Below, one piece after another: positions 38,443-60,430 of a stretch of DNA of 64,000 nt. A program made the position numbers and the translations under genes. The notes beneath the pieces were generated by a model. The model had not been told where the DNA came from, searched no databases, and saw only the letters and a program-made list of their open reading frames with translations. Positions within the stretch are counted from its first letter, which is position 1; every line of letters starts with the position of its first letter. This stretch comes from Cyanophora paradoxa CCMP329 (taxonomy: Eukaryota > Plantae > Glaucophyta). The DNA lies in the NCBI GenBank assembly GCA_004431415.1, contig QPMI01000600.1, forward strand, positions 62,001-126,000, written 5' to 3'.

Positions 38443-38806
38443 AGCTCGTTCCGCCGCAGGCGGCCGCTGTCGACGTCGCGGGCCTCGATCTCTGCGGCTG
38501 CAGCTGGAGGTTGGCGAGGCCCCGCGCGGGCGAGCGACGGGAGAGGGAGTCGACGATTGAGAGGGGATCCCGGAGAGCTAGAGGGGGCGGAATATTAATC
38601 TGGAGGAGATCGACCTCGCGGGGCTCGAGGGAAAGCTTTAATTTAAAGGGGAGGGTATGGGCGGAGGCGCGCGGGCACCACCATAGCCATGCAGTAGCTC
38701 TATACAGTGCCGCAGTGCAGACGACGCCTGGCCGCCGGCTGCACAGCAGCTCACCCGGGTACAGGTTAAGCAAGCCGACAAAGCAGCGAGCAACTCCCGC
38801 GGCGCG

Positions 38807-40590
38807 ATGCACACCTCGGCGTTCCTAGCTCCGGCTCCTCTGGCAGGTGCGTGGCGAAGACGCCCGTCGTCGGGTCGTGGGGCCGCGGGCTGGGTCTGAC
38901 TCCGCGCAGCGGATTCGCTGTCATCGTCTGCCAGCAACTTCGGCGGCAGCAGGATCGTCGCTCAGCACCAGTCCCGGCCAGTCAGCACCCGACCGAGGCC
39001 CGCGCGCACTTTCGTGCCGGAGATTGTCAACGCTAGGAACACTGGCACGAATGTCGCGCGCGAGAAGAGAGTCAAGCCGCAAGTGATCCGTCAAATCACA
39101 TTCGTGCGTCAAGGCAACGCCGTCGCGCTCGCCCCCGGAAGCGCGCCGGGCGTGCACGTGCTAGATGCGCTAGCGAACCGCCGGGGCGGCTGGTCCGACT
39201 GCGCGCCGCAGGATTTCCCCGAGGGATCGCGCGGCAAGGTTTACGTGTGCCAGCACTCCATCTGCCACAAGCGTGCGCGCCGCCAGCGCCGCCGGCCGCG
39301 CCGCGCCGCGCCGGGGCGAGCTGGAGGCGGCGGGCGTGCGCGCAGAGAACAGCGAGGCGGCGCTGGCGTGGTTCAAGGACCTGGTGCCCGAGGACATCGT
39401 CATCGAGCGCGGGCCCTGCCTCGGTCCGCCCCGGGCCCCTTCCCTCCCCGCCGGGTCGTCTGCCGCGGTTCAAACCCGCCGCGCGCTCTCGCAGGCCACT
39501 GCGCTGCTGGCCCCAACACGGGCTTCCTCGCCCCCAACAAGGACATCGTGCGTCGCACCCCCGCCAGGCTCCATCCCCCCTCACGCCACCCTCGCCAGGT
39601 CCTCGTCACCGGCGCGGATTCGTCCTTGAAAATGCGCGAGGCGCGCCTTCTCACCCCCCCTCCCCCCCCCCGCCCCCGATCTATCCTTCTTAATACGGAC
39701 CGGGTACAGGCGCTGAACCGCGAGTTCGGCGTGACGGTCTCGGACGCCCTCGTCGACATCATCCGCCTGAAGCAGTCGGTGCGCGTTGTACCCCCCGCAT
39801 CGTTTCTCTACCCCATACCCGTGCTGAGCGTATCCCCGCAGGGCAACCGGCTCTTCTCGGCCAACCGCAACAAGCGCGCCCTCGAGGCCTTCAACGAGGT
39901 ACCCCCTGCCTTTTCCACCCGCGTACCCCCATATCGACCTCGCTCCCGGCCGCAGGCGCTGAAGATCGCGGAGGACAACATGAACGAAGTGAACGTGCCG
40001 AGGATGCGGGCCCAGCTCGTGCGCATGCTCTCTCCCCTACCCCCCGCAGCGATCCCGCGCGCCGTTGACCGCTCCCGCAGCTCTCCAACCGCTCTGCCGT
40101 GCATCTCGCGATGGAGGACATCCCTAAGGCCGAGGTGGGACCCCGGCCCCCGTACCCCTGCGCCCCGTACCCTCGGGCCTCTCATCCCCCCCCCCCCTCC
40201 CAAGGCCGATGCCGACGCCGTTGTGGAGGCGTCCCCCGCCTGGTGGAAGGGTACGCGCTCGCGGCCCCGGGGGGTACGGGCCCGGGCCCACGCGGGGGCG
40301 CCAGGGTACGCGCGGAAGGCGGAGGCGCTGGTGGCGGCGGGCAAGGTCGCCGAGGCGAAGGTTCGCCCGCCGCTGTACCCCCCTTTGTTCGCCTTTCCGA
40401 ACGGGGGCCGCGCGCAGGATTGGTACATGAAGGCGGCGGAGAAGTCCAATGGGGACGCCGAGGTGCGGGTACCCCGGCCCGGCGGGGCAGCGCCGGGGCT
40501 CGGCTCGGCCCGGCCGGCGGGATCTGACGGAGGGTCCGCCCACAGGTGCTGGACCTCATCAAGGAGACCCTCGCGGACCTCGAGGCGTGA
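38807..40590 (+). CDS. Thioredoxin-like [2Fe-2S] ferredoxin + TPR protein with putative plastid transit peptide
   Basis: MHTSAFLAPAPLA..SLSSSASNFGGSRIV transit-like N-terminus; VYVCQHSICHK..GPCLG-HCAAGPN (Cx4C..Cx3C); QGNRLF..ALEAFNEAL, LSNRSAVHL, KGYARKAEAL TPR units. Confidence 0.8.
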
Positions 40591-41492
40591 GCCGGCCGCG
40601 AGCCAGGCCGGGCCGCAGCTGAAAGAGCCTTGGAGAGTCGCGCGGCCGCGGGTGCCGTGTCTGGCGGCTGCCTCGGCCAGACTAGGTGCGGCTGTAAGTG
40701 AGATTTGGGCTTGGACAACGCCGCGTCAACGCGAGGGAGCCCTGGCCTGGCCAAGAATTAGGCACCGGGCTAATAGGCCTGCGCATGCGTCTTCCTGAGC
40801 CTATAACCTACGGGGCGACGTCAGCGGCGGTCAGCCGCTGAGCCTTGCCTGCGCAGCTCGGCGCCGGGGGCCCGGGCCGGGCTCCCGGGTCCGGGATCCG
40901 CATGCGCACGTTCGAATTCCACCGTTCCGCACGGCGCACACCGTAGCTATACCGGGTACCTGGTAGGCAGTCCGCACTACGGTACCGGTACTAGTAGCTG
41001 GCATGCCATCATTGCCATGATAATCAGCTGCAGCCGGCAGTGCCCTGCACTGGCGCATCATCGGCCCGCGCATGGCCCACCGCGCGCGCGGGCCTGCAGG
41101 CTGCAGCTGGATTCGAATCGTTACCGGTAATAAAAATTTGATTTGCTAATTGGGGTGCAAGCTCGTTTTCATATGCGTTCGATTTTTCAACTGCCGCAGT
41201 TGCTTTTTCGCGAAGATGCAACTCGTTGTACCCATCGCCGCGCATCATGGCTTCCGCGATGCCGCGGTTGCACTTCATCGCGCCCTGCTAGCTATAGACG
41301 CAAAGCAGCCGCGCGGCCCATCATCCGACGAGCTCGAGCGCACTCGCCGCTATAGCTAGCGCAGCGCTAGCGCTAGCAGTCTGGTCGACGTCGGGGCGCC
41401 AGCACGCGCGGCGCGGCGCGGGTGCCGCGCCGGCCCGCCAATGGATCATGCCAGTGGAGCCGCCTAGGCGCGGATAGCGGCCGGTCGCTGCC

Positions 41493-46320: not shown

Positions 46321-48278
46321 GGCGTCTGCGGCGGCGGGGGCGGCGGCGGCGGCGGCGGCGGCGGCGGCAGGGGCGGCAGCGCCGCCCTTGCGCTTCTTGA
46401 GGGCGTCGGGGCCGAAGCGCTCAATCGCGCGCTTGCGGGACTGGGCGGCGTTGTCCGCCGCGATCTGGGTGGCCTCCTCGCGGGCAGATACAGCATCTAT
46501 ATATATGCATATATATGATCATGAGCTCACTTGCAAGGGCCTAGCTATGCGCTTGCGCGCATATGCATGTACATGTAGTATATATATAGGGACCCGTCGA
46601 CGTCCTGGTTGCCTTGTTTAGAAATTTGCATAATGGCTGCTTCAGGCCTGTGCACTGGCATGCAAGTTCGAGCTCGAGAGCGCGAGGAGGGCGCCCAGCT
46701 CCCTCATGCAGTTAAAAGCTTTCGAATTGCTCCACTAGGGGGCCAAGGGCGTCCCAGAGCAGACGGGGGCCGACTTATTCGTGTGTAGGTCGATATCGCA
46801 GGCGCCCCTCAAGCTCGCCGACCGTATAGGAGGCTTGCATCGGGGGGGGTGTCAAGGGGACCAGTCGCCTCGTGGGAGAGGGACCGGCGGGCATGAGGGG
46901 CGGGCGGCGCGGGGCCTGGCAGCGACCGCCGGGGACGCATTGTCCGCCGCTGGGAAGACTTCGACGGAGCCCGGGGATTCCGGGTCCGATAGTGGGCGAG
47001 CGCCATCAGGCTCGGACCCCACGAGGGCGGGTCCCGGCGAGGCCGGGCCCTGAGGCAGGCGAGCGCCGTCTGGCTCAGACCCCGCAGTGGTAGCTGGGCG
47101 AGCATTTGAGTGCTCATGCGCCCGGGTATGCGTAGGGGTCGTCGGCTTGCATGCCGGCCGTCGGCTTGCATGCCGGCGCCGGCGGCGCCAGCAGAGGTGG
47201 CGTCACAGCGAGGGCGGGGGGGGTGCGGGGCTCGGAGCTCTGTCCACCGCCGCGTCTTGGGGCGCTTGTTCCGCGTCCCACCAGAGGCCTGCGAGCGTCG
47301 CGCACGCGTCACGGCGAGCCAAGTGAGCGGGGGGGATGCGGCCCCGTGGTTCTTGAGTGTCGTGCTGGCGCGGGCGGCCCCGCGCACGGGCCGCCGGCGC
47401 CTGCGTGCTCTGTGGCAGTGCGGGGCCAGCGTCAAAGTTCATAGAGGAGGGGCGCGGGCGAAGGGCGTGAGCGACGGGCGCGGGGAGGGTCCCGCATGGT
47501 CGGCGGCAGCGGAGCCGGGTGCGTTGGCGGAGCCGCGCGTCCGACTGCGCGGAGTCGAGTCGAGTCGTGCGTCGTGCGCTGTGGACGTGAGCTCAGGCGA
47601 GCCGCGCATGCGCGGGTGGCATGCGTTGGCGGAAGGATTTGCATTAGCACACAACAACAACTTCTAGGAGTTTCACATCGCCCAATTTATCTCTCCGACT
47701 AGATAACACTGAGGACCGTCGAGTGCTGTGCTCTGTCTAAGTGATGAGAAATTCTATCTACGTCCTATATCTACAAATGGGGCGAGAGGCCGAAAGATAC
47801 ACCTGCAGAAAAAGCCCAGGCCCTACGCAGACCGATGAAGGCAAAGGGAAGGCGGGAATGCGTTGGCGGGAAGGCGGGCGGAGCGAGGACGGGAGCTTAA
47901 ACGAGCGTATGGTGGCTCTAGATGTTGTGTGGCGTCTCTCGGGCGCGCTCGGAGCGGCAGGAGAGGGCGGCGGGGACCGGCCCGTTTAAACACGTTACCG
48001 CGGGAGCTGGCGCGAGTCGCGGCGCCAGCAGGGGCGCAGCTGCTCTTCTAGATGTCTGTGGTGTCGCTGCGGCTGTCGTTGCCCGCCCGGCTGACCTACT
48101 TTGCGCGTTCGGGCCGTGATGGTCGTAGGGCGTCGGCGCCGCGAGTTTTGGGACCGGCAACGTGCAGTGCTAACAGGCACCCGCGTTGGGGAAGCCCCAC
48201 TGCGCCGGCTTACTCGCTCGCGGGCCTTCGCGCAATTTTCCGGGGTACCGGAATCTCTTGCATTCGCGGCTATATATA

Positions 48279-49165
48279 TCATTTCTGAAGAGTACTAGTG
48301 GCACTGTCCATATGCATCTCGAGCTCCATCTGAACATTGCAAAGCCAGTGCTCCGCTCTCGGTAACTCTTCCCCAGATCGGAATAAGGACTGCAGATCGC
48401 GATCGGCGGCCGCGGCCACGTCGGCACTGCGCATACCTTGGCCAACAGCAGAAACCCGCACGCGCCGCACAGCTTTTTGCGGCAAAAGTTCACGCCCCTC
48501 CGGATCCGGATCCTCTGCCTGAAGTCTCGGTCGCTCCGGAGGGGCTGCAGCTGTCACAAGGAAACTAGAGATGCTAGGTTCCTCTCGAGCTGCAGATGTA
48601 GACCGCGTGCTCCCCTTAAGCTTGCAACTGTCTGTGCCATGTGTGCGTCTGATCCCTCTGTTCTCTGCGGCTGGTGGTTCCGGTAATGTTCGTCCGTGCG
48701 TAACCTTGAGTGGGGGAAGCGGAAGTCTTCTAGATACATGCGGTGCAGCTGCAGGTGACATTGCAGATTCGAATTCTGGTACCTGCGCCTGTGATTGATC
48801 ACGAGAAGCGCAAGTGAGCTGAAAAAGAGTAGAGGGCTTCGCGCGCCTGAGTAGCTATAGGGCTCGTGGAGGGTGCGGAAAGTGGGCGGCCTGGGGACTC
48901 TCGCACGTTCAGCTGTAGACGCGGTTGTATTGCTTGGCCGATATCGATCGCGCTGCGATTGCCATTGATCGGGATGCGTACGGGTGCGCTACTTGTAACG
49001 CCGGCGCCTTCCTTGTGCCTGTAATAATTACCGCCTTGCAATTGGGACTGAACTGACTGAACCGACTGCTCGTGATTGTGCCCGTATGCTTGCTTGTCCT
49101 TTGAATTCAACTCGATGTTTGCCCTAGGCCTCGAGCTCGTGACTGGTGTCTGGATGCGGCATCGA
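48279..49165 (-). pseudogene. 3' two exons of an unidentified host gene, truncated by the viral insertion
   Basis: Open frame from about 49165 to 48847, a 58-nt GC-AG intron at 48846-48789, then an in-frame exon 48788-48279 (..SPIATQ|AQVPEFESAMSPAAAP..STLQK*). The upstream part runs directly into the viral hairpin. Confidence 0.6.
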
Positions 49166-49168
49166 CGA

Positions 49169-49243
49169 CACACATATGAATATTCATATTTTAATCCCTC
49201 GGCGTTCCGCCTCAGGATTAAAATATGAATATTCATATGTGTG
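49169..49243. repeat. Terminal hairpin: perfect 29-bp inverted repeat with a 17-nt loop
   Basis: CACACATATGAATATTCATATTTTAATCC (49169-49197) / GGATTAAAATATGAATATTCATATGTGTG (49215-49243). Each arm contains the 16-bp palindrome ATATGAATATTCATAT; the loop holds a GGCG-ttc-CGCC mini-stem. Confidence 0.95.
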
Positions 49244-49245
49244 AT

Positions 49246-49470
49246 TCGATGTTATATCAATAAAATCGATTAATTTATTTGAATTTTCACCTGAATTTTC
49301 ATATTTTTATATGCATTTTCAATTAATTTAATCGATGTTATATCGATAAACTCGATTAATCGATATTGTATCTTAATTGTAGTTAATCGGAATTATATCA
49401 ATAACTTCGATTGATCTTAATTGAATCCTAAATGAATCTAATCGGAATTATATCAATAAAAACGATTAAA
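49246..49470 (+). repeat. Four iterated ~29-bp subterminal motifs (TCG..TTATATCAATAA..CGATT)
   Basis: Copies at 49246-49274, 49332-49360, 49387-49415 and 49442-49470. Confidence 0.85.
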
Positions 49471-49524
49471 TCATGTTCTTTTCCGATTAAATCAATTAAA
49501 TATTTAACTTTGTTACCATAAGTG

Positions 49525-49960
49525 GTCTAAGTTGACTCACTTTTCATAAACATTTTGAACTCTTAGTCTCCTTGAATTTCTTAATATGACTCAACTTAGT
49601 CAACTTAGTCAACTTTGTTACTGTAATCAATCAGGGTGGACTCACTTTTAGATCAACTTTGAAATTTCAAGCAAAATCAACTTGGATTTCAAAAGTGGAT
49701 CTTCTAAGTGGACTCAAAATGTTCACTTTGTGATACTTGTTAGCTCAAATCCTTACTGTTTATGGTCAGGGTTGACTAAGTGGGGGGAGTTGACACATTT
49801 TTTGAAATCCTTTTTAGAAAACTTTAGGTCCCAAATATTTTCTGTGAAATTTGAGTCAACTCAACCCACTTAGTCAACCCTTGCATTGAATTCGTAACAA
49901 AATCCATATACTTTTACTACTTTTACGATTAATATGAGTCAACCTTGAGTCCACTTAAAT
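49525..49960. repeat. Array of GTTGACT/GTGGACTCA motifs in both orientations, including a ~33-bp imperfect inverted repeat
   Basis: GGGTTGACTAAGTGGG (49769-49784) / CCCACTTAGTCAACCC (49865-49880); further copies at about 49530, 49590-49615, 49637, 49708 and 49935-49956. Confidence 0.85.
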
Positions 49961-50085
49961 ATAAATATAATATAATAGGGGGAATGAAGGGGAATGTTGA
50001 ATTTTACTGTAATGAAATCGAACATTATTCCAATTACTTACAATAGAATTCTATCGTAAAAAATGTCCGGAATCCGGAAAATAAT

Positions 50086-50150
50086 CATTGTATAAAGCTA
50101 CTGTAGTGAAAGGATATATTATATCTTTTTGTTACAGTAGCTTATCAATG
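50086..50150 (-). terminator. AT-rich hairpin downstream of the AdoMetDC gene; possible transcript 3'-end signal
   Basis: aagctactgta (50095-50105) / tacagtagctt (50133-50143) with inner gatata/tatatc and outer cattg/caatg pairs, about 50 nt past the stop at 50201. Confidence 0.45.
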
Positions 50151-50200
50151 TTATTGTTAGAAAACAAAGGAATCCTTTAGAAATTCATTATAGAAACCCA

Positions 50201-50599
50201 TCAAAACGGGAATCTATCATGTTTATGTCTCTCAGTCTTCTCAAATGTGAGGAAATTCATTGTTTTATCGATCTCATCTGCTACTGATTGTGTTTTATGC
50301 TGAGCTTCTTTACCACAACTGAATATATCAATTGCTAACATGCCTTCATTGGAATAACAATGAGCTGTACAATGGCTTTCATCTAATAGCAGAACCAAAG
50401 CAAAACCAGGAGGTGATAGTTTGCCATCAAATATCTCACAATGCTTATGAACAATCCTAATACCTTGTCTCAATACTGCTTGTTCAAGGGTTCCCATAAT
50501 CCAATTACCTAGGAAGCTTACATGCTCATGTCCTGTTGCAATAGCTGATTTAGCCTTGTAATCAAGCATAACATGAAAGCCTCTGTATTTAGTCTCCAT
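50201..50599 (-). CDS. speD: S-adenosylmethionine decarboxylase proenzyme, small prokaryotic (class 1B / SpeH-type) pyruvoyl fold
   Basis: GFHVMLD..; LLLDE|SH self-cleavage site (E74/S75); AHCY (H80); AIDIFSCG (C95); 132 aa. Confidence 0.9.
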   Translation of the reverse strand: METKYRGFHVMLDYKAKSAIATGHEHVSFLGNWIMGTLEQAVLRQGIRIVHKHCEIFDGKLSPPGFALVLLLDESHCTAHCYSNEGMLAIDIFSCGKEAQHKTQSVADEIDKTMNFLTFEKTERHKHDRFPF

Positions 50600-50628
50600 T
50601 AAGAATACCTTAGAAAAATTAATTAATC

Positions 50629-50901
50629 CTAATCGAACCTAATGCAAATATCCCTGTACTCTACTTTGATTGATGAAGTAGCCCTTTTCCTGTAAGCCTG
50701 AGAATGTTTTTTGTTGCATTCCCTGCAACCTGATCCCTTCACATGATTAAAGGGATAGGTAAGGATCACTTTATTACACTGCAAACATCTAACAGATACT
50801 TTCTCTTGAGCTTTGATGTAATGTGTCTCACTGTAATCGAATTTATCTTTACCATGAACTGTCATAGCAGCATCAATAAACTTTTTTGTTTTACTATCCA
50901 T
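50629..50901 (-). CDS. Stand-alone DUF723-like zinc-ribbon module (homing-endonuclease-associated repeat of large DNA viruses and phages)
   Basis: FIDAAMTVHGKDKFDYS..KVSVRCLQC..PFNHVKGSGCREC. Confidence 0.75.
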   Translation of the reverse strand: MDSKTKKFIDAAMTVHGKDKFDYSETHYIKAQEKVSVRCLQCNKVILTYPFNHVKGSGCRECNKKHSQAYRKRATSSIKVEYRDICIRFD

Positions 50902-50923
50902 ACTCTATATATAACCAATATTC

Positions 50924-51756
50924 TTATGGAGCAGTATCCTGCCCAAAAATGGGGAAATATCGATTTGTCCCATAGTATTCAGCATAGGTATTCTGCTTTG
51001 CAATAAAATCGGTTCTCTCAGCATATAATACACACTTGTAGATACCAAACTTGGTGGCTCTAACCAGGAACTGGTAATCTTCTAAACCGAAATTGACTCC
51101 ATGATAAGCAATACCAAAATTATCATATGGGGTGATCACAACTGCAAAATTAGGAGTTCCACCCTCTACTTGACAAAGAGCATAAACATCTGGTGGGATA
51201 TCCACAACTACCTTGTAGTGGTCACCAATTTCAACAAGAGAGTCTACTACTGCTGTTTGTTCATTTACAACAATGGGGAATATCTTTATAATGTATGGGG
51301 CATTCATGCTGGGGACATAGGTTCGAATTCTTGTATTGGGATCAATGGGATTGGGTTGATCATTCACAAATAAAGGCGCTCCAACAGCCCCACCAACCCT
51401 AAGACCATCACCAATATAAGCTCCCCCCGATTTGCAGTTAATAGCTCCCGACCTAGATTCAAAAGAATAAGTAGACAGAGGATCTCCATAGCTATCTGGG
51501 TCTCCATAATGAGCAGAAAAGTTTGCATTTGTGACAAGTAGCTTAGTTGTCTTAACTATACCATTATTTTTATCACATCTGAGTTCCTGTAATCTCAGTT
51601 TGTGGGTGGAACCAAAGGTGTTCATTGTAGGTTGGACCTCTGTTGATTGGAGACCCTCTACATCATCAAAGGTAGCATGCTGCAGAACATGGTTTGCTGG
51701 GGCAGCTAATGATAGCTGTGGTGTAATAATTCGTTCAAGTGGGGTTGCTCAGCCAT
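50924..51756 (-). CDS. Viral fibre paralog 4 (shared N-terminal domain, non-C1q head); single-base frameshift in a C4 run near 51742
   Basis: MAEQP + (frameshift) LERIITPQLSLAAPANHVLQH..LRLQELRCDKNNGIVKTTKLLVTNANF..GAINCKSGGAYIG..CVLYAERTD. Confidence 0.7.
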
Positions 51757-51779
51757 TTTACATTAAAGGGATATATCTT

Positions 51780-52624
51780 TTATGGGGTTGGGTCATCAAT
51801 TACATCTGGCTCTTGGTAAAACCCTGTAACTGAAAGAGTATCAGGAGTTACACCTCTAAGAGCTGATACAGCGGCTATATCTGTTCTCAAACCGATAAGA
51901 GTTATAGTATATAACCCAATATCTGTAACAAACAAGTCAAAGGTGAAATTATTATTATAAACACAGTAGCCATAACCGAAATGATTATATCCCTGAACAT
52001 TGAAATAGTATTTATGACCTACTTGATTGTTGTTGGCTCTACAAAGGGAAAGCATTGCAGATGGAATCGCAAGACCTCTCAGTACTCTTTTGGTTCCTTC
52101 AATTAATTCCGAGTTTTCAAGAGTAACAGTATATCCAATGTAAAATTGAATTAATGGCTGCTGTGCGACAGGAGTATATAATCGAATTCGTTGGGGGTCT
52201 TCCACATTTTGCTCTAGAGTATCTGGGACATCATTATACGAAATTGAGGATGAAAGCTGACCTGAAATTCGACAGCCACCCCAATAAATGCTCCTCCTGA
52301 TCTCACAGTGACAGCTGCAGAATTCTTATCGAAATCAAGGGCTTTCAGATCAACACTGTAAGCATCTGGACCTCCATTGGTAGGCTGAAAGAAGTTTGCA
52401 TTTGTGACAAGCAGTCGAGTTGTTTTAACCACACCAGAATTCTTATCAGCTCTCAGCTCTTTAACTCGAATAATCGAATTTTTATCAAAGGAGTTACCAT
52501 TGGAGTTGGGTCTCTCTGTGGATTCTAAACCACGAACCTCATCATTAACTTCATGCTGGCGAAAATGCATTGCAGGGGATCCAAGGGAATATATAGGCAG
52601 TTGAACTCGATTATATTCACCCAT
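51780..52624 (-). CDS. Viral fibre paralog 3; ORFs 52214-52663 and 51780-52205 join across a single-base frameshift at about 52280
   Basis: MGEYNRVQLPIYSLGSPAMHFRQH..IIRVKELRADKNSGVVKTTRLLVTNANF..VRSGGAFIG[G]GCRISG..VEDPQRIRLYTP..ITLIGLRTD; collinear with paralog 4. Confidence 0.7.
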
Positions 52625-52662
52625 TGCTTCTTTTACTAAGAAGGAAAGAAAAATAATGTTCA

Positions 52663-52926
52663 CTACTCTTCTGTAACATTATTATACTCAATACCTTTCT
52701 TTACAGTTCCCCTTTGGAATGCCTGTGACACAATTGCTTCCTTTGAGGTTGGTATTTGAACTCCTGATGAGATGCAAGATTGAATCTCTTTCTGAACAAT
52801 TTCATCAATTGCAATTCTCGCCCTGTTGTGAACAGCATTATCAATCCAATCTTGAACAGATAAAGCGCAATATTCCATTGCGAGATTTTCAGTATCTGAA
52901 AGAACCACTTGGTAGATATTCGACAT
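52663..52926 (-). CDS. Small 87-aa fibre-associated protein resembling accessory proteins found beside C1q-type fibres in marine phages
   Basis: VVLSDTENLAMEYCA..VQDWIDNAVHNRARIAIDEIV..QIPTSKEAIVSQAF.RG; family similarity is from recall. Confidence 0.6.
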   Translation of the reverse strand: MSNIYQVVLSDTENLAMEYCALSVQDWIDNAVHNRARIAIDEIVQKEIQSCISSGVQIPTSKEAIVSQAFQRGTVKKGIEYNNVTEE

Positions 52927-52945
52927 TCTATACTACTTGTAGAAA

Positions 52946-53968
52946 TTAAATTATGCTCAGCAATTCGCCACTAAATGTTGTGAATTCCGAAAGATAAGTA
53001 TGATTAGCATGAATAGAAACATTATCGCCTGCTCCAAGTCTTACTATTGCGCTCAAATTGATTGTTTTGTTGGTTACAGTTTGTGAGTTGTTTACCCTGA
53101 AATTGAATTCTGTTGAAACATTCTGATCATTTACTTTCAGATCTACACTCACAGTTGATGTAGTAATACTATAAGCAGTTAGAGAGAATCTGTAATCTCC
53201 GTAAACAGGTGCTGTGAATTTCCCTTCTACTAAATCGAATGAGTTGGTATTATCAAAGAATTCATGCAACCAATTCGTAAGACGTCCAAAGACTGCATTT
53301 CTTGTTGCTAAACCGAACCCAACACAGAATCGAGGTTGGGTTGCTTGCTTCAAATAAAAGTTTGCTGCGATTGTGAGACCTCCTGCATCAATTCGTGCGA
53401 CTTCTGTACTATTTCGTTTCAGAATCAGATCCACATTTGCTCCTGTATCTATTTCAGGTGTTTGTATCTTTGTGGTTGTGGTCATTACAGGGACTGTATT
53501 AGTAGGAACAGAAAGACCACCATTTGCATTCACAACACCTGTAAATGTTGTTGCTCCTGAAATTAAAACGTTTGTAGCTGAGAGTGTCCCATTCACAAAA
53601 GCTCCCGAACCTATCCATGCTCCACCTGATTTAACTACAAGTGCTGCATTATTTTCTGTCCCATCAAAAGTAACAATTTGTGGTGTGGTCACCCCACCTG
53701 CATCATCATAAATTGCTGCATCAGCAACTACACCACCTGTTAAAACCTGATTCTTGTTACTCACGATTAATTGAGTGGTTCTTATTTTTCCAGCATTTCT
53801 ATCACATCGAATTTCCTTGCATCTGATAATCGAATTTTGAGTAAACGAATCTGCTCCTGTGGTTTCTGTGCAAATAAACCCGGGAATAGCATCTGTGACT
53901 GTGTGGTTCAGTTGATGCAATTTAGGCGCTGCATAACAGAAAACAGGGACTGCGATTTGGGTAGCCAT
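52946..53968 (-). CDS. Viral fibre paralog 2 with C-terminal C1q/TNF-like head
   Basis: IIRCKEIRCDRNAGKIRTT..ALVVKSGGAWIG N-domain; SFDLVEGKFTAPVYGDYRFS..SAIVRLGAGDNVSI..TTFSGELL. Confidence 0.8.
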   Translation of the reverse strand: MATQIAVPVFCYAAPKLHQLNHTVTDAIPGFICTETTGADSFTQNSIIRCKEIRCDRNAGKIRTTQLIVSNKNQVLTGGVVADAAIYDDAGGVTTPQIVTFDGTENNAALVVKSGGAWIGSGAFVNGTLSATNVLISGATTFTGVVNANGGLSVPTNTVPVMTTTTKIQTPEIDTGANVDLILKRNSTEVARIDAGGLTIAANFYLKQATQPRFCVGFGLATRNAVFGRLTNWLHEFFDNTNSFDLVEGKFTAPVYGDYRFSLTAYSITTSTVSVDLKVNDQNVSTEFNFRVNNSQTVTNKTINLSAIVRLGAGDNVSIHANHTYLSEFTTFSGELLSII

Positions 53969-53990
53969 CTATAAAACCCCTACAAAAAGT

Positions 53991-55040
53991 TTATAATCTA
54001 CTGATGAGATGCCCCCCGAAACAGGTAGTACCACCAATTGTCCCCGTTGGTTCAACATATATGTATGATGACCAGATATGTATGACATTCACATGTTCGT
54101 TTGCATATACAGGAAAAGAAGCCTCCATGTGAACACTTCGCTTTCCATTGAAAGTTGAAAATACTTGAACCGATTGGGGGGAAATAAACAAATCATTCTT
54201 TTGAAAACTAATTCTACACTCCCCTGTGGATGCTGTTGTTGACATTTGAACCATAAAGAAGAATCTATAAATTCCTGAAACAGGTGCTGTAAAATTGCCT
54301 GCGTTGCTGACACTATTGCTTGCATCTACAAGAACTCTATTATAAGTGAATTTCCTTGTTTCTACTGTTGCTCCAACATTAAATCCTGATGTTGAATAAG
54401 CAACAACACAAAAACGAGGGTGTGGAACTTTCAGATATTTAAGTAGATTAATGGATGGAGAAACATTGTTAATTGTTGCTGTAACCACTGCATTTCTCTT
54501 TACATTAAGTGCAGCTGTTGTTTCAATTTCAGGTGTGTTTAACTTTGTGGAGAAGACACCAACACCAACTGAAAGACTACTCGCATTAAATCCACCCTGA
54601 AAAGTTATTGGACTCTCAAAAGTTCCACTTCCAGCATTTAGTATGGGTGCTGTTACTGTTCCATTCACCTTTAATGCCTCTCCAAAGTATGCCCCTCCAC
54701 TCTTAACTACAAGAGCTGCAGTATTGCTTGTGTTCCCAAAAGTAACTATCTGTGCAGTGGTAAATCCACTCACATTATCATATATTGCTGAATCGGGAAC
54801 TACTTGACCTGCTTGAACTTGATTTTTATTCGAGATTATAATTCCTGTGGTTCTTATCTTGCCTCCATTGCGATCACATCGAATTTCTTTGACTCTGAGT
54901 ATATTGTTCTCTGTGAAAGAGGTGTTGCTTGAAGTTTCAGTGCAAATATACCCAGGGGTTGAATCAACTACTCCATGAGAGGTGCTATGGATTGATTTGG
55001 CTGCAAATTCGTAGTTTGGGATTTCTAATAGAGAGGTCAT
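53991..55040 (-). CDS. Viral fibre paralog 1 with C-terminal C1q/TNF-like head (probable start MTSLLEIP)
   Basis: ILRVKEIRCDRNGGKIRTT..ALVVKSGGAYFG; GNFTAPVSGIYRFFF..TCFGGHLI. Confidence 0.8.
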   Translation of the reverse strand: MTSLLEIPNYEFAAKSIHSTSHGVVDSTPGYICTETSSNTSFTENNILRVKEIRCDRNGGKIRTTGIIISNKNQVQAGQVVPDSAIYDNVSGFTTAQIVTFGNTSNTAALVVKSGGAYFGEALKVNGTVTAPILNAGSGTFESPITFQGGFNASSLSVGVGVFSTKLNTPEIETTAALNVKRNAVVTATINNVSPSINLLKYLKVPHPRFCVVAYSTSGFNVGATVETRKFTYNRVLVDASNSVSNAGNFTAPVSGIYRFFFMVQMSTTASTGECRISFQKNDLFISPQSVQVFSTFNGKRSVHMEASFPVYANEHVNVIHIWSSYIYVEPTGTIGGTTCFGGHLISRL

Positions 55041-55059
55041 CTTTGTAATAACGAAATAG

Positions 55060-58000
55060 TTAAATTGCGACAGCAGTGTAATGAATTGTAACTGGAAATC
55101 CTGGTCTGTCAAAAGAACTTAATGGAACTATTTCAAGCTCACATGTGAAATAGCTACTGTAAACTTGTTTAAGCCTAACATACATGCGGTAGTAGTAGGC
55201 TGTCTCATTGTGTTGTATACCGGTTGTTACGATAGGAGGGTTAGCAAAGCTGCTGTTGAAATTAATAGTGAGGTTAAACCTATGGTCAGGGTTTGCCCAA
55301 AGATAAGGAGTAGTGTAAACATACGTTCCTGCTTGAAGTTTCCCATTGAAATATGCATTGAGTTGACTGGAAAGATCTGCTTCAGTTAAACATCTACTTA
55401 TAGAAGCATTATTGGAAGGGTTCATAGCGTAGAAATTTCTTGCATAGGCATTTCCACGAACAAGTAAGGTCTTATCAAAGTAATTTTGCGAATTGTGAAA
55501 GAACCATGTTTCTTCAAACATAGGTCCTGCTGGTTCTACTATCTGACCTGATCCTACATACATTGTGTTATTCGCTCTGATGGTGGTAGCTGTGAATGGA
55601 TCGAGAGTTGGTCTATTGGTCAGATCATTGTAGTTGCCTGAGAATATTGCGGGCTTATTATAGATATCTGTATTCCAATCATGAGTGTGTGCAAAATCTG
55701 TAATCTCTGCCTTAGTGTGATTGTGAGCGAAATCTGTTATCTCTGACTTTGTATGGTTGTGTGCGAAATCTGTGATCTCAGATTTAAAATGAGTGTGAGC
55801 AAAATTCGTTATTTCTGCCCTGGTATGGGTGTGTGCAAAGTCTGTTATTTGGGACTTTGTGTGAGTGTGTGCGAAATCTGTGATCTCTGCCTTTGTGTGG
55901 GTGTGTGATCTATTATTAAGATCAAGGAAGCTTCCTGAAAATGCAACAGGATGCAGATTTGCAGCAGTAGGTTTATTGATGAGATCATTATAGTCTCCTG
56001 TGAATGAAATTGTCTTCAGTTCACCCCTTCCAACATAATCAGAAGGTAGATCAATCTTGATGGGCATTATAGCTGGATCATCTGGTATCTCATACTCACC
56101 TCCTGGATGAACCACAGGGAAGGTTTGATTGCTTTCAGTATGAACAAAGAAGTTGCATGCTGTTACTGTTCCATCAATAATCCCACCTGTGAGAGGGAGG
56201 TAATTTCCTGTGACATGTATACCTGCAATGATTGTATTAAGTTCTGTTTCATCTATGTAGTTCTGGGCTTGAAGGTAATCCTCTGTCACCACTCTTGATA
56301 TGGTCTCATTGTGAATATTCTTTGCTGCTGCCCTCTGATTGATCTCTAGAACTCCCTCACCAACTCCACCATTATAATTCGTTTTGATCCATGCCATCTC
56401 ACATCTCTTATAGTCATCTCGATTTCCTATGAGAGCATCAGGTAACAGTCTCTCCCTGCTGAATATTAATTTTGGTCTTGAACCATCCAAATCACTCACA
56501 TCAGTAACATTAATTTGGATTGCTGCATCTTTGTCATCATAGTTGACTGGATCAGATGGTAGAGATATTAATCCTCCTGTCATTGGGATGTCATCAGCAT
56601 AGTAACTGGTTAAATAGATACCTGGTTTGGTGTCCAATGCTCCGAAATTTCCACCTGCTGCAATCATCTGCATTCTTGTAGGGGGTCTAATGTATAATTC
56701 ACCTTCCATAGTAGTGCCTGCATCAATACCCTTTCGATTGACATAATAATCATTTAGTTGTAGCCTCTCAGGTATGGTATTACTCTGGTAAAGACTCACA
56801 CCATGTGGGAAGTCTGTTAGCAGGTTGCCTGCAGATGCAAATTTGGGTTGCTGGTCAATTTCACTCCAAGGGTGTCTGTGATTACAGTTGGTGATCTGGG
56901 TATAATCATGAGTATGGGAATCAGGAGGGAATGTTAGTGGTCTATCTGTGATATGCTCCCATAAATGTGTGTGATCAAAATCTGTGATCTCTGATTTAGT
57001 ATGAGTGTGGTTACTGTTGGTGATCTGGGAATAATCATGAGTGTGAGCAACAGGTGGAAAGGTCAATGGCTTGTCTGTGATATGCTCCCATAAGTGATTG
57101 TGAGAACTGGGAGGGAATGTCAATGGCTTGTCTGTGATATGCTCCCATAAGTGATTGTGAGAACTGGGAGGGAATGTCAATGGCTTGTCTGTGATATGCT
57201 CCCATAAGTGATTGTGAGAACTGGGAGGGAAGGTCAAAGGTTTATCTACAATATTCGACCAGGCATGGGTGTGGTCAAAATCTGTAATCTGGGCTTTTGT
57301 GTGAGTGTGATTTTGAATCCAACCTTGAACCACATTAGAGGTTGGATGATGTGGTAAATTTGCATTGCTTGTAACTGTAAGGTAATCTATTACAGTATCA
57401 GGTGAGGTTATTTTTAATCCTCTGTAAATATTCAGAGTCTGGGTATGAGTGAATCCATATTTTTGTTGAATGTAATACCTAACAGCATTCTTTTCAGAAG
57501 TTGTCAAAGCCCTATTGAAAACAATCAACTCGGAAATACCACCATTCACAATATTACCAAATCCGAAATGATTGACAGTATTATCTGGTAGATAATTTGT
57601 TCCTACAAGTGTTTGAATATCTACTCCATTTAACCCGACTGTGTAGCTGCTAGAAGTAATTGTTTGGTCAGTGTAATACCATGTATTTATTAAAGAAGGA
57701 ACCGTAATATCTGGGCGGGTTTGGGATGCTCCATTAATAGTGAACTGGTTCATTCCAATAGCAGTAGAAGATGTTGCCCCATAATAACAATATCGTGATG
57801 GAAAGGCGCTTCTGTAAAGTCTCAAGTGAACTTGCATAGAAGAGGCAGTTGGATGATATTTTCCCACAAAGAAAAATGTAAGCCCATTTGAGAAATCAAT
57901 AGTTCTTGTAGCAGAGGTATATGCATAAAAAGTGCCTGTTGGGCTTGAAACACTAACTTGGTTGTTGATTTCGGGATTGGTGTAATAGGAACTGGCTCCG

Positions 58001-60387
58001 TAGATAAACAAGTCTGGAACAACTGAATTCGGGACTCTGCTTACTATAGTTGTATACATTGCTGATTGACCTGGTACTCCTGATGCCTTCCAAGCAAAAA
58101 TGCAGTTCGAGATATTTGATGCTGGATCAAAGCTTGGCGGGACATCATACCATTCTTTGTAAACCTGATTCATGGTATTGAAATTGCAAGAGCCAATTGT
58201 GAGGATTCCATTTACTTTTAGGTTGCTGGTCACTATATTGCTGCTGTAAATATTACTATTAACTGTGAGGTTTCCTGTGATTGTCCCACCCACAAGAGGG
58301 AGATATTTGGATAGTTCTGCTGCAAGTTCAGCTTCTGTAATAAATTGATCAAGCATAGCAAGGGTTACAAAATTAACAAGGATTACTGCAGTAAGGTAAT
58401 CCTCTGTGACCACTCTCGAAATGTTCTCATTGTGTATGTTTTTTGCAGCCATCCTCTGATTAGCTTCCAGAACCCCACCATAATCTGTTTTAATCCATGC
58501 AAGCTCTGCCCTCCCATAGTTATCATTTGCAGTTCCCACTATGGGAATGTAGGAATATTTATCTCGACTGAATACTATCATTGGTCTTGAGCCATCTAAA
58601 CTGCTTACATCTGCTACATGAACCTGTATAGCAGAGTTGTAATTTTGGTAGGTTGCTGGGTCTGTTGGGACTCTAAAAGTATCTGTGGGTATGTCAGCCT
58701 CCATGTAGCTTGACACAAAGATATTTGGTATGGTTGCTCCTGGTTCAGGTGGGGTTTCATAAGAGCCTGGTAATGTCCTAATATGAAGTGGTCCTCTCAT
58801 AGCTGAATTCGCAAGTGTCCCATTCACATGTACATAGTGTTCATTCAAAAAGATTCTTTCAGGGACATTGCAAGTCTGGTAAAGAGAAACCCCCAAGTTA
58901 TCAAGAGGCTCTACCTTTGCAAATTCTGGTTGGTCATTGATCTCATCCCAAATATGTTCATGTTTGCTTGGTGGGAACTCAGTAGGTATCCCATCAATTT
59001 CACCCCAATCATGCCTGTGATCCTCTGGTGGATACTTTTGAGGTTTGCCTAAGATCTCATCCCAATCATGATTGTGATCCTCTGGGGGATACTTTGCAGG
59101 TTTATTATTAATTTGTTCATAATCAGGAAAGAACTCCCAGATCTCAGGTCGAAATCCATCTGGTAATAATTCCTCATGGGGTTCATAAGGTTGCTCATAG
59201 TCAACAACTGGTGGATCATGACCATCTGGTAAATACTCCTCATCAGGTTCATAGTTCTGCTCATACTCATACTCTTGAGGATCTAAGCCATCTGGTAGTA
59301 TCTCCTCCTCATTGGGGTCATACTGATCATATTCATATTCTTGTGGGTCAAAACCATCTGGTAAATACTCCTCCTCATCTGGAACGAATTGATATTCATC
59401 AAGCTCTAAAATATCGACTTCAGGAGGTAAATACTGCTCATCTATTTGCTTTCTGGGTTCAATTATCGGTTTATTGCGAACTTGCTCCCAACTAACAATA
59501 TGCTGCCCAAAGGCTACATCTTCAGTTGCTGTGTATTCTCTTCCAGGCTGCTTCTTTGGTGTTAAATCCGGTGGATCCCATGGAAGAGGGAAGGGAACTG
59601 GGACAGGTCCATAATACTCAAAGATCTCTCTTATGGTCTTCTCACTTACAAGCTTCTCACCATTTGCATACACATTACTGCCATGGATATTTCGCCATTG
59701 CCTGGTTCGAATTCCAAGGTCTTTCACATTGCTATACAAAGGCAAAAGGTGCCTATCCATTTCGACTAAATCAGGATGTAAATGGATTGCTACTGGTTGA
59801 CTGGGGCTACTGTTGATTGTAATTGATGGCTTTTTTTGATGGACATCTTTTGGAGTAAAGAACCCAAAAGGCTCATTCCTTGCAAAGTCATATGTAATAT
59901 CCTTTGGGTAGACATCATTTGTGTAGGAGACCTGATTTGTGTTGGCAATGGGACCCACTTGCAATACTTGGGGGACCTCAGCTTTTGCAGTGCTGCCCTC
60001 ATTGTAAATTCGCAAAGCTGTGTTCTGTTTGCCCTGCTCATCTTGAACATTGAAAACCAAACGACCACTATCAAACCTGGAAGGTATATCTGGATGAGTG
60101 CCACTGGTTTTTAGTTTCCTAGGTCTCCTTCTTGTTGCTTTGATCTCTGCCACTTGGTTTGCTTTCACATTACCCAAGCTAAAAGCTACACTGACTTCCT
60201 CCTTATCTGGATCGGTTTGATTCACAGATAAAGCATGCTCCCTTGATTGAGTCTTTGATGAATTATCAGAGCTGTGGTCAATTGAAACTGAACCCTTTAC
60301 TTTAATATTATCAAAGTTCACATGCTTGGTGCTGCTTGCATTATCATCTTGAATGGTTTCTAGATTTGGTGGGTAATTGAAGCTCAT
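55060..60387 (-). CDS. 1775-aa mosaic fibre/adhesin with His-rich phage tail-fibre repeats, LamG/concanavalin-like domain and C-terminal H-lectin-like domain
   Basis: HxHxWxxIxxKPxxFPP and HTHTKSEITDF repeats; acidic EEYLPDGxDP repeats; GISELIVFNRALTTSEKNAVRYYIQQKYG; LTINFNSSFANPPIVTTGI..VTIHYTAVA; an internal ~200-aa duplicated block. Confidence 0.75.
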   Translation of the reverse strand: MSFNYPPNLETIQDDNASSTKHVNFDNIKVKGSVSIDHSSDNSSKTQSREHALSVNQTDPDKEEVSVAFSLGNVKANQVAEIKATRRRPRKLKTSGTHPDIPSRFDSGRLVFNVQDEQGKQNTALRIYNEGSTAKAEVPQVLQVGPIANTNQVSYTNDVYPKDITYDFARNEPFGFFTPKDVHQKKPSITINSSPSQPVAIHLHPDLVEMDRHLLPLYSNVKDLGIRTRQWRNIHGSNVYANGEKLVSEKTIREIFEYYGPVPVPFPLPWDPPDLTPKKQPGREYTATEDVAFGQHIVSWEQVRNKPIIEPRKQIDEQYLPPEVDILELDEYQFVPDEEEYLPDGFDPQEYEYDQYDPNEEEILPDGLDPQEYEYEQNYEPDEEYLPDGHDPPVVDYEQPYEPHEELLPDGFRPEIWEFFPDYEQINNKPAKYPPEDHNHDWDEILGKPQKYPPEDHRHDWGEIDGIPTEFPPSKHEHIWDEINDQPEFAKVEPLDNLGVSLYQTCNVPERIFLNEHYVHVNGTLANSAMRGPLHIRTLPGSYETPPEPGATIPNIFVSSYMEADIPTDTFRVPTDPATYQNYNSAIQVHVADVSSLDGSRPMIVFSRDKYSYIPIVGTANDNYGRAELAWIKTDYGGVLEANQRMAAKNIHNENISRVVTEDYLTAVILVNFVTLAMLDQFITEAELAAELSKYLPLVGGTITGNLTVNSNIYSSNIVTSNLKVNGILTIGSCNFNTMNQVYKEWYDVPPSFDPASNISNCIFAWKASGVPGQSAMYTTIVSRVPNSVVPDLFIYGASSYYTNPEINNQVSVSSPTGTFYAYTSATRTIDFSNGLTFFFVGKYHPTASSMQVHLRLYRSAFPSRYCYYGATSSTAIGMNQFTINGASQTRPDITVPSLINTWYYTDQTITSSSYTVGLNGVDIQTLVGTNYLPDNTVNHFGFGNIVNGGISELIVFNRALTTSEKNAVRYYIQQKYGFTHTQTLNIYRGLKITSPDTVIDYLTVTSNANLPHHPTSNVVQGWIQNHTHTKAQITDFDHTHAWSNIVDKPLTFPPSSHNHLWEHITDKPLTFPPSSHNHLWEHITDKPLTFPPSSHNHLWEHITDKPLTFPPVAHTHDYSQITNSNHTHTKSEITDFDHTHLWEHITDRPLTFPPDSHTHDYTQITNCNHRHPWSEIDQQPKFASAGNLLTDFPHGVSLYQSNTIPERLQLNDYYVNRKGIDAGTTMEGELYIRPPTRMQMIAAGGNFGALDTKPGIYLTSYYADDIPMTGGLISLPSDPVNYDDKDAAIQINVTDVSDLDGSRPKLIFSRERLLPDALIGNRDDYKRCEMAWIKTNYNGGVGEGVLEINQRAAAKNIHNETISRVVTEDYLQAQNYIDETELNTIIAGIHVTGNYLPLTGGIIDGTVTACNFFVHTESNQTFPVVHPGGEYEIPDDPAIMPIKIDLPSDYVGRGELKTISFTGDYNDLINKPTAANLHPVAFSGSFLDLNNRSHTHTKAEITDFAHTHTKSQITDFAHTHTRAEITNFAHTHFKSEITDFAHNHTKSEITDFAHNHTKAEITDFAHTHDWNTDIYNKPAIFSGNYNDLTNRPTLDPFTATTIRANNTMYVGSGQIVEPAGPMFEETWFFHNSQNYFDKTLLVRGNAYARNFYAMNPSNNASISRCLTEADLSSQLNAYFNGKLQAGTYVYTTPYLWANPDHRFNLTINFNSSFANPPIVTTGIQHNETAYYYRMYVRLKQVYSSYFTCELEIVPLSSFDRPGFPVTIHYTAVAI
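55680..55910. repeat. 36-bp coding tandem repeat (HTHTKxEITDFA x6)
   Basis: Identical 12-aa period with synonymous divergence at the DNA level. Confidence 0.9.
57062..57232. repeat. 57-bp near-perfect tandem repeat x3 (PLTFPPSSHNHLWEHITDK)
   Basis: gtcaatggcttgtctgtgatatgctccc... starts at 57062, 57119 and 57176. Confidence 0.95.
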
Positions 60388-60430
60388 GGCTTTTACTATA
60401 TGGATTTATAAAATTCCTGATAAGTAAAAG

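Follow-up and report, generated by a model that had tools for sequence, protein, structure and literature searches.

Eukaryotic viruses are known to encode prokaryotic AdoMet decarboxylases (AdoMetDCs), two of which have been validated (Li et al. 2023 PNAS, PMC9992855). The class 1b SpeD proteins of HaV01 and YLPV2, like the protein described here, are small SpeD enzymes of prokaryotic type in eukaryotic DNA viruses, but both group with true AdoMetDCs, and HaV01 has an adjoining speE, which by that description sets them apart (PMC9992855). A second kind of relative is SpeDA, a SpeD homologue that is little diverged from AdoMetDC and has had multiple origins (Li et al. 2023 JBC, PMC10407285). 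SpeDA of Ca. Poseidonales/marine group II–III, Gimesia, Solirubrobacter, Nannochloropsis and Tribonema shares with our protein the fold, the Ser/His/Cys triad and the missing Pro of the HxWP motif (PMC10407285). A speDA–speB–speY arrangement has been described in marine group II (MGII)/Poseidonales (Li et al. 2023 JBC, PMC10407285), and the assayed archaeal SpeDA decarboxylates arginine, not ornithine or lysine, and does not rescue E. coli speD. Arginine is also decarboxylated by SpeDA-clade proteins from Nannochloropsis and Tribonema, and validated enzymes of the Poseidonales–stramenopile clade are slow, with kcat/Km of 20–180 per M per s (PMC10407285).

Polinton-like viruses (PLVs) and virophages carry AdoMet_dc genes, which share the Pfam family of the gene studied here and sit in elements of the same kind (PMC12220804, PMC7805220). 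In both of these reports the gene appears in the supplements only, labelled AdoMetDC or DNA methyltransferase with no accompanying substrate analysis, and the word ‘decarboxylase’ is missing from the main text. That word is also not mentioned in PMC10120064, the supplements of which may list the gene.

Other viral enzymes reach the same product by different means. The arginine decarboxylase (ADC) of chlorovirus PBCV-1 likewise converts arginine to agmatine, but it is a PLP enzyme with another fold and belongs to a full pathway, and the pyruvoyl ADC of pelagiphage HTVC201P does the same but represents a separate lineage, 20% identical to our protein. Phage SAM lyases have an anti-restriction function; the resemblance to them lies only in a proposed goal, less SAM, whereas the chemistry differs.

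Here we describe a SpeD-fold gene in an integrated element of Cyanophora paradoxa CCMP329 and argue that it probably encodes an arginine decarboxylase. The window is the whole stretch of DNA that was analysed, 64,000 nucleotides of contig QPMI01000600.1 (positions 62,001 to 126,000); all coordinates refer to it.

A predicted SpeD-fold proenzyme

The gene and its diagnostic residues are as follows.

50201..50599, reverse strand: class 1b SpeD-fold pyruvoyl proenzyme of 132 amino acids, likely an arginine decarboxylase of the SpeDA clade (ORF, Pfam, alignment and clade)
50375..50380, reverse strand: Glu74–Ser75, predicted self-cleavage site (sequence, alignment to T. maritima, relatives)
50351..50362, reverse strand: His80-Cys-Tyr-Ser83, with the catalytic His kept and Ser in place of the Pro of true AdoMetDCs (HxWP)
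50315..50317, reverse strand: Cys95 (within DIFSCG), equivalent of T. maritima Cys83 (alignment)

The ORF starts with ATG, has zero internal stops and matches Pfam AdoMet_dc (PF02675) at 43.7 bits against a cut-off of 25 (E 3.9e-11), so the match is not due to chance. In alignment, Glu74/Ser75, His80 and Cys95 match T. maritima Glu62/Ser63, His68 and Cys83, with His76 directly after Ser75, and the Glu74–Ser75 pair is unchanged across all 61 aligned relatives. Equivalents of Ser63, His68 and Cys83 are essential for processing (Li et al. 2023 JBC, PMC10407285). An AlphaFold2 model based on 61 sequences has a single-domain fold (pLDDT 95.5, pTM 0.88), for which the best Foldseek matches are the class 1b AdoMetDCs of T. 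maritima and Aquifex (TM 0.66–0.70, E 3e-8); SAM lyases come up only as weak matches (E about 6e-3, TM 0.40–0.44). By Pfam score, triad and fold, the ORF is a member of the class 1b SpeD fold. Self-cleavage between Glu74 and Ser75 to a pyruvoyl enzyme is predicted from these residues, and Ser75 would turn into the pyruvoyl group.

An earlier note, made from the letters of the window, had reported an intact 132-aa ORF with a Glu–Ser cleavage site, His80 and DIFSCG, on which ORF, alignment, Pfam and model now agree. It was also right to see a prokaryote-type pyruvoyl decarboxylase ending an endogenous eukaryotic virus, and to name a polyamine role and arginine or ornithine as options. Its statement that the small form is confined to prokaryotes and phages was wrong, as stramenopile algae and giant viruses have such forms too (PMC9992855, PMC10407285).

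The element that carries the gene

The element occupies the right part of the window, where these further features were recognized.

49169..49993, no strand assigned: left terminus of the element, AT-rich with a hairpin, likely a terminal inverted repeat (GC, hairpin, RNA contigs; one copy in the window)
50629..50901, reverse strand: 90-aa zinc-ribbon-like ORF, with a weak DUF4379 match under the cut-off, resembling a repeat protein of a giant-virus bin (L003)
50924..55112, reverse strand: several related fibre-like ORFs in a row, with two C1q matches, one above and one below the cut-off
55060..60387, reverse strand: 1775-aa fibre-like protein, with phage-tail repeats and a C-terminal H-type lectin, both below the cut-off
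60431..61987, forward strand: patatin-like phospholipase fused to an F5/8 discoidin domain (Pfam)
62150..62908, reverse strand: putative minor capsid protein, which we take to be one from its N-terminal motif; frame broken near 62170 in this copy
62938..63948, forward strand: putative second minor capsid protein, the nearest Atlas cluster being viral

Near 49170 the GC content drops from ~0.69 to ~0.39 and stays low up to the window end at 64000, beyond which the element continues. A 36-nt palindromic hairpin at 49169–49243 forms the extreme end of the element, with 55-nt spaced repeats next to it. One contig of RNA run X15 begins at 49170 and carries another flank. Contigs of RNA runs X15 and X16 connect 49993 to 62160, at the patatin end, on opposite strands, and the inner end of the terminal repeat therefore probably lies at 49993; we infer a repeat of ~820 bp that is common to other copies. 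A DNA contig at 48228–49194 was considered as a bridge across the junction and rejected, as it extends only ~26 letters into the element, against a 31-letter rule.

The stop codon of the SpeD-fold gene lies ~200 bp inward of the terminal repeat, there is no ORF of at least 80 aa between 49236 and the gene, and going inward from the left end of the element this gene comes first in this copy. The terminal position given in the earlier note thus stands for this copy on the GC step, the hairpin and the lack of an outer ORF of at least 80 aa. Two DNA runs gave 3721 and 6244 contigs on 47000–64000, which fall into three identity bands, so the element is a multicopy family.

A fibre with tail repeats and an H-type lectin is known from one Cyanophora paradoxa PLV, and a patatin–discoidin fusion from glaucophyte and rhizarian PLVs (Bulzu et al. 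2025, PMC12220804). Because the fibre and patatin architectures here are the same, the element is likely a glaucophyte PLV, as judged from the left end within the window, where the traits present are an AT-rich multicopy insertion, a terminal repeat, and fibre and lipase genes. A single-sequence fold of the 62150–62908 product reached a pLDDT of 33.5, and a comparison with four PLV mCP-like ORFs gave no significant match. For 62938..63948, the commonest phylum of the Atlas cluster is Preplasmiviricota (score 0.98), at a recognition value under the trust level of the tool. The homologue search for the putative capsid protein kept none of 1651 candidates, and single-protein scans of viral contigs returned none for the SpeD-fold gene, the patatin or the putative capsid protein.

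This copy shows one-base differences from others at 51740, 52278, 52943 and 62170. Those at 51740, 52278 and 62170 coincide with frame breaks in the fibre-like and minor-capsid-like ORFs, and may reflect either decay or assembly error.

Profiles, motifs and phylogeny

The window protein scores 44.4 bits against the AdoMetDC equivalog TIGR03330, under its cut-off of 75.65, and has Ser83 where the HxWP Pro stands in true AdoMetDCs. One Pro is the main mark that separates true AdoMetDC from ADC (Li et al. 2023 JBC, PMC10407285). The HxWP Pro, which follows the catalytic His by three residues, occurs in 9/9 canonical references; it is missing from the validated phage ADC of HTVC201P, from all 80 archaeal proteins and from all 134 motif-bearing proteins among the 148 library relatives examined. 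An upstream Pro is kept in 80/80 MGII archaeal proteins, and we therefore read the discriminating Pro of that paper as probably being the HxWP Pro.

In BLASTP comparisons the window protein scores 109–110 bits with two MGII proteins; for phage enzymes of validated activity the scores are 37 bits (S-PM2 AdoMetDC), 32 bits (P2559S AdoMetDC) and 29 bits (HTVC201P ADC, 20% identity). Its identity to MGII proteins whose genes adjoin speY or speB is 48–51%. Of the residues that mark SpeDC (Gln, Thr, Phe, Tyr), the window protein shows none at the four positions inferred from the Fig. S5 alignment of PMC10407285. A quick tree search of 56 rows, in which long branches were flagged, placed it within a 45-row clade of MGII, eukaryote-like and viral rows (SH-aLRT 99) that is separate from the nine canonical SpeD references (99) and, inside that clade, in a subclade of 18 rows, viral and eukaryote-like, known from sequence alone (97). 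The phylogeny that the earlier note had called for thus sets the window protein with MGII, viral and eukaryote-like rows, away from canonical SpeD. As the tree was built without the assayed proteins DAC51064, AIF02979, XP_005856029 and KAG5182568, the apparent link to the assayed SpeDA clade is one of taxon and gene order.

The identification as an AdoMet decarboxylase in the earlier note is not supported, given the failed equivalog, the absent HxWP Pro and the grouping with SpeDA-type archaeal genes. The gene is likely mislabelled by its family name and would encode a SpeDA arginine decarboxylase rather than an AdoMetDC; taken alone, we consider arginine the probable substrate.

Neighbours and fusions of relatives

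A scan of GTDB with a pattern derived from the clade, which for that reason could not return canonical SpeD, gave 518 matches. Among the best 80 of these, 79 are titled archaea, many of them Poseidoniales/marine group II, and one is Yoonia. All of these best 80 have a speY- or speB-like gene within 1.5 kb (79 speY, 25 speB) and none has speE beside the gene; as a control, the SpeE query recovered the annotated speE in both of the loci that carry one, among five control loci. Pfam Spermine_synth matched in one of 30 genomes of relatives (incomplete genomes), at a marginal 23.3 bits. Unlike the archaeal SpeDA loci, the window gene, known from sequence, is a lone viral gene: neither speB nor speY lies in the window. 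Spermidine synthase was also not found in any of five viral records searched, three of which are giant-virus bins 91–94% complete, nor was agmatinase in any of four. Within the window, no spermidine synthase domain was detected among the 13 element ORFs scanned, which agrees with what had been reported by eye. In L192 a canonical, Pro-bearing speD adjoins an agmatinase gene, so the substrate cannot be read from gene neighbours by themselves.

Among the 148 library relatives, 14 lack the cleavage motif. The 41 long relatives were scanned for fused domains: five carry DHS/SpeY, one agmatinase and five PQ-loop, and none carries spermidine synthase. An NNMT-type methyltransferase is fused in four of the 41 (two of which also have DHS) and a SET domain in one, and these relatives fall in the 18-row subclade of the window protein. 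Both kinds of domain use SAM, and among the sequence data it is mainly these fusions that speak against the arginine reading.

Several of these fusions deserve mention in their own right. The PQ-loop domain is joined to a SpeDA-clade domain in P0034, P0038, P0060, P0076 and P0170; PQ-loop proteins are basic amino-acid carriers, and such a fusion could couple arginine transport to decarboxylation. Those with an NNMT-type methyltransferase or SET fused to SpeD (P0040, P0063, P0090, P0138 and P0053) possibly belong to a methylated-polyamine pathway. Tandem double SpeD-fold proteins (P0026, P0029 and P0059), of which P0026 has DKSH instead of DESH in both halves, recall the proposed route to the eukaryotic class 2 enzyme.

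Distribution among viruses

The gene family and the gene content of such elements are already catalogued in glaucophyte PLVs. Table S6 of Bulzu et al. 2025 (PMC12220804) records AdoMet_dc in 66/156 (42%) glaucophyte PLVs and in cryptophyte elements (10/177, 17/57 and 45/706, total 72), with none in 15 other PLV host groups; by our own sum of that table, the family occurs in 138/5,817 elements and 4/19 host groups. The earlier note had asked whether the gene is common in described PLVs, which by these figures is the case among those of glaucophytes and not across the whole set. Cluster PC_0120, with 22 proteins from virophages and GKS2 PLVs, has a Swiss-Prot AdoMetDC match (PMC7805220), and a gene of this type is listed in 7/19 of one GKS2 cluster (Bellas and Sommaruga 2021, PMC7805220, Tables S1, S6, S7).

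The nearest relatives with genomic context are on giant-virus-like contigs (L100–L102; 49–52% identity), inside the 18-row clade, and L100 carries an NCLDV major capsid gene. Six of 19 viral loci, on small contigs, resemble free PLVs (L001, L006, L008, L009, L010 and L019); four of the six have a Pfam A32-like ATPase, in one case below the cut-off, and four have a primase/integrase. Their SpeD genes cluster with other giant-virus rows. With 31 rows, and with the group chosen after a tree had been seen, an AU test rejected a single clade of the window gene and five free-PLV genes (p 4.4e-6), which points to several separate exchanges of the gene among PLVs, giant viruses and hosts. In the literature searched, which excluded most subscription literature, we found in print no SpeDA reading for PLVs or giant viruses; several separate PLV–giant virus exchanges of the gene were likewise not found in print.

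The SpeD proteins of the PLV-like contigs L006, L008, L009 and L019 are closest to those of the giant-virus-like L005, L007 and L011, and SpeD likeness is a candidate marker for PLV–helper pairs. A 71-kb phage-like contig also has a SpeD gene (L012:9998-10375), nested within marine group II sequences.

CpG depletion and transcription

The element is poor in CpG, with an observed/expected ratio of 0.315 (TpG and CpA 1.31) compared with 1.09 in the host flank and 0.72–1.06 in the six free PLV-like contigs. Within 49170–64000 the depletion and the TpG/CpA excess are found in the coding part, the terminal repeat having a ratio of 0.90; the giant-virus contigs L100 and L101 are at about 1.4. This pattern suggests host cytosine methylation of the gene bodies of the element and, since it fits past methylation, the silencing pressure supposed in the earlier note may exist. 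The SpeD-fold ORF itself has a ratio of 0.149, so carriers of the gene have not been spared.

RNA runs X15 and X18, which come from studies of the same year and may be one campaign, contain spliced host transcripts as well as contigs over the SpeD-fold gene. The contigs that cover the gene (50199–50475, with seven differences in 277 letters, and 50185–52061, with 92 differences) depart from the window, so the transcript comes from a sister copy; it is a sister copy of the gene, and not the window copy, that is transcribed. At least five copy differences lie inside the ORF, in four codons, and all those listed are synonymous. Runs X21 and X24 have spliced host transcripts and, among the contigs listed, none over the gene, and in X15, X16 and X18 the fibre and capsid-like genes have scant or zero cover. 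Such contigs cannot rank genes, as the runs were found by using the window stretch and the gene lies at the 3′ end of its strand, and we draw no conclusion from the uneven RNA cover of element genes.

Proposed role and alternative explanations

We favour, with reasonable though not high confidence, the reading in which the intact SpeD-fold protein is a self-cleaving pyruvoyl arginine decarboxylase (SpeDA) that would raise the polyamine supply in PLV replication. The viral enzyme would convert host arginine to agmatine, from which host enzymes would make putrescine or homospermidine; host enzymes are assumed for this step because the window holds no such gene. The extra polyamines might aid packing of viral DNA or translation. 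The gene probably results from exchange with giant viruses or with nuclear genes of algae, and would not have come straight from a prokaryote.

A true AdoMetDC that hands dcSAM to a host spermidine synthase, the role demonstrated for two giant-virus class 1b genes, has several points in its favour: the protein has an AdoMetDC's fold and processing residues, E. coli speD is rescued by the class 1b genes of both HaV01 and Yellowstone Lake phycodnavirus 2, solitary phage speD genes are active without viral speE (PMC9992855), and SAM-using domains are fused to five of the long relatives. We nevertheless consider it unlikely, because of the clade, the relatives’ neighbours, the missing Pro and the failed equivalog cut-off. 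The bolder idea of the earlier note, that the enzyme drains SAM and makes dcSAM that blunts the host's methylation of DNA or histones on the integrated virus, draws on the CpG-poor element expected after host cytosine methylation, on dcSAM as a competitive inhibitor of methylation (PMC2933235), on speE not being seen in the window and on the transcription of a sister copy. It needs SAM as the substrate, however, whereas the clade argues that the substrate is probably another. That clade also occurs where such silencing is not evident, beside speY or speB in archaea, among algal genes and on giant-virus contigs without CpG loss, and the ORF itself is strongly CpG-depleted (0.149); we regard this idea as extremely unlikely, and the result lends no support to a eukaryotic counterpart of phage SAM lyases.

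Decarboxylation of ornithine (SpeDC) or another amino acid would fit with the several substrate switches among SpeD homologues (PMC10407285) and with a virophage SpeD in the Bellas 2021 list that resembles SpeDC by eye, but the window protein has none of the four diagnostic residues at the positions inferred from Fig. S5 and the assayed members of the matching clade are inactive on ornithine and lysine (PMC10407285), which makes this very improbable. A neutral or non-catalytic passenger, retained through its position beside the terminal repeat, would account for a family restricted to 4/19 PLV host groups (PMC12220804), for the 14 of 148 relatives without a cleavage motif and for the broken frames of other genes of this copy; we see little likelihood in it, given that every processing residue is kept, that the listed copy differences are all synonymous, that 42% of glaucophyte PLVs carry the family and that there seem to have been several separate gains. 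An extension of the arginine decarboxylase reading, in which PLVs and giant viruses repeatedly swap the enzyme and integrated copies express it from the host genome, diverting arginine into agmatine, as a metabolic weapon in a three-way contest of host, giant virus and PLV, strikes us as doubtful.

Should the enzyme act on arginine, ‘AdoMet decarboxylase’ would be the wrong label for many proteins of PLVs, virophages and giant viruses, and eukaryotic DNA viruses would make agmatine by a second route, free of PLP, in addition to that of the chlorovirus enzyme. The gene would also be one of few metabolic enzymes in viruses of 15–40 kb, gained several times.

The host flank

GC content is high in the host flank, where introns are short and of the GT-AG type. 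Pfam over 89 host ORFs gave zf-UBP and TPR matches only, and no tRNA genes were found. About 237 bp at 47620–47860 are bypassed by DNA and RNA contigs and have very high depth; this is probably a small mobile repeat that other copies lack. Host genes at 10500–12650, encoding a zf-UBP ubiquitin protease, and at 38700–40720 have many introns of 50–110 bp; some donors in 10500–12650 seem by eye to be non-GT, and RNA joints confirm the splicing of 38700–40720.
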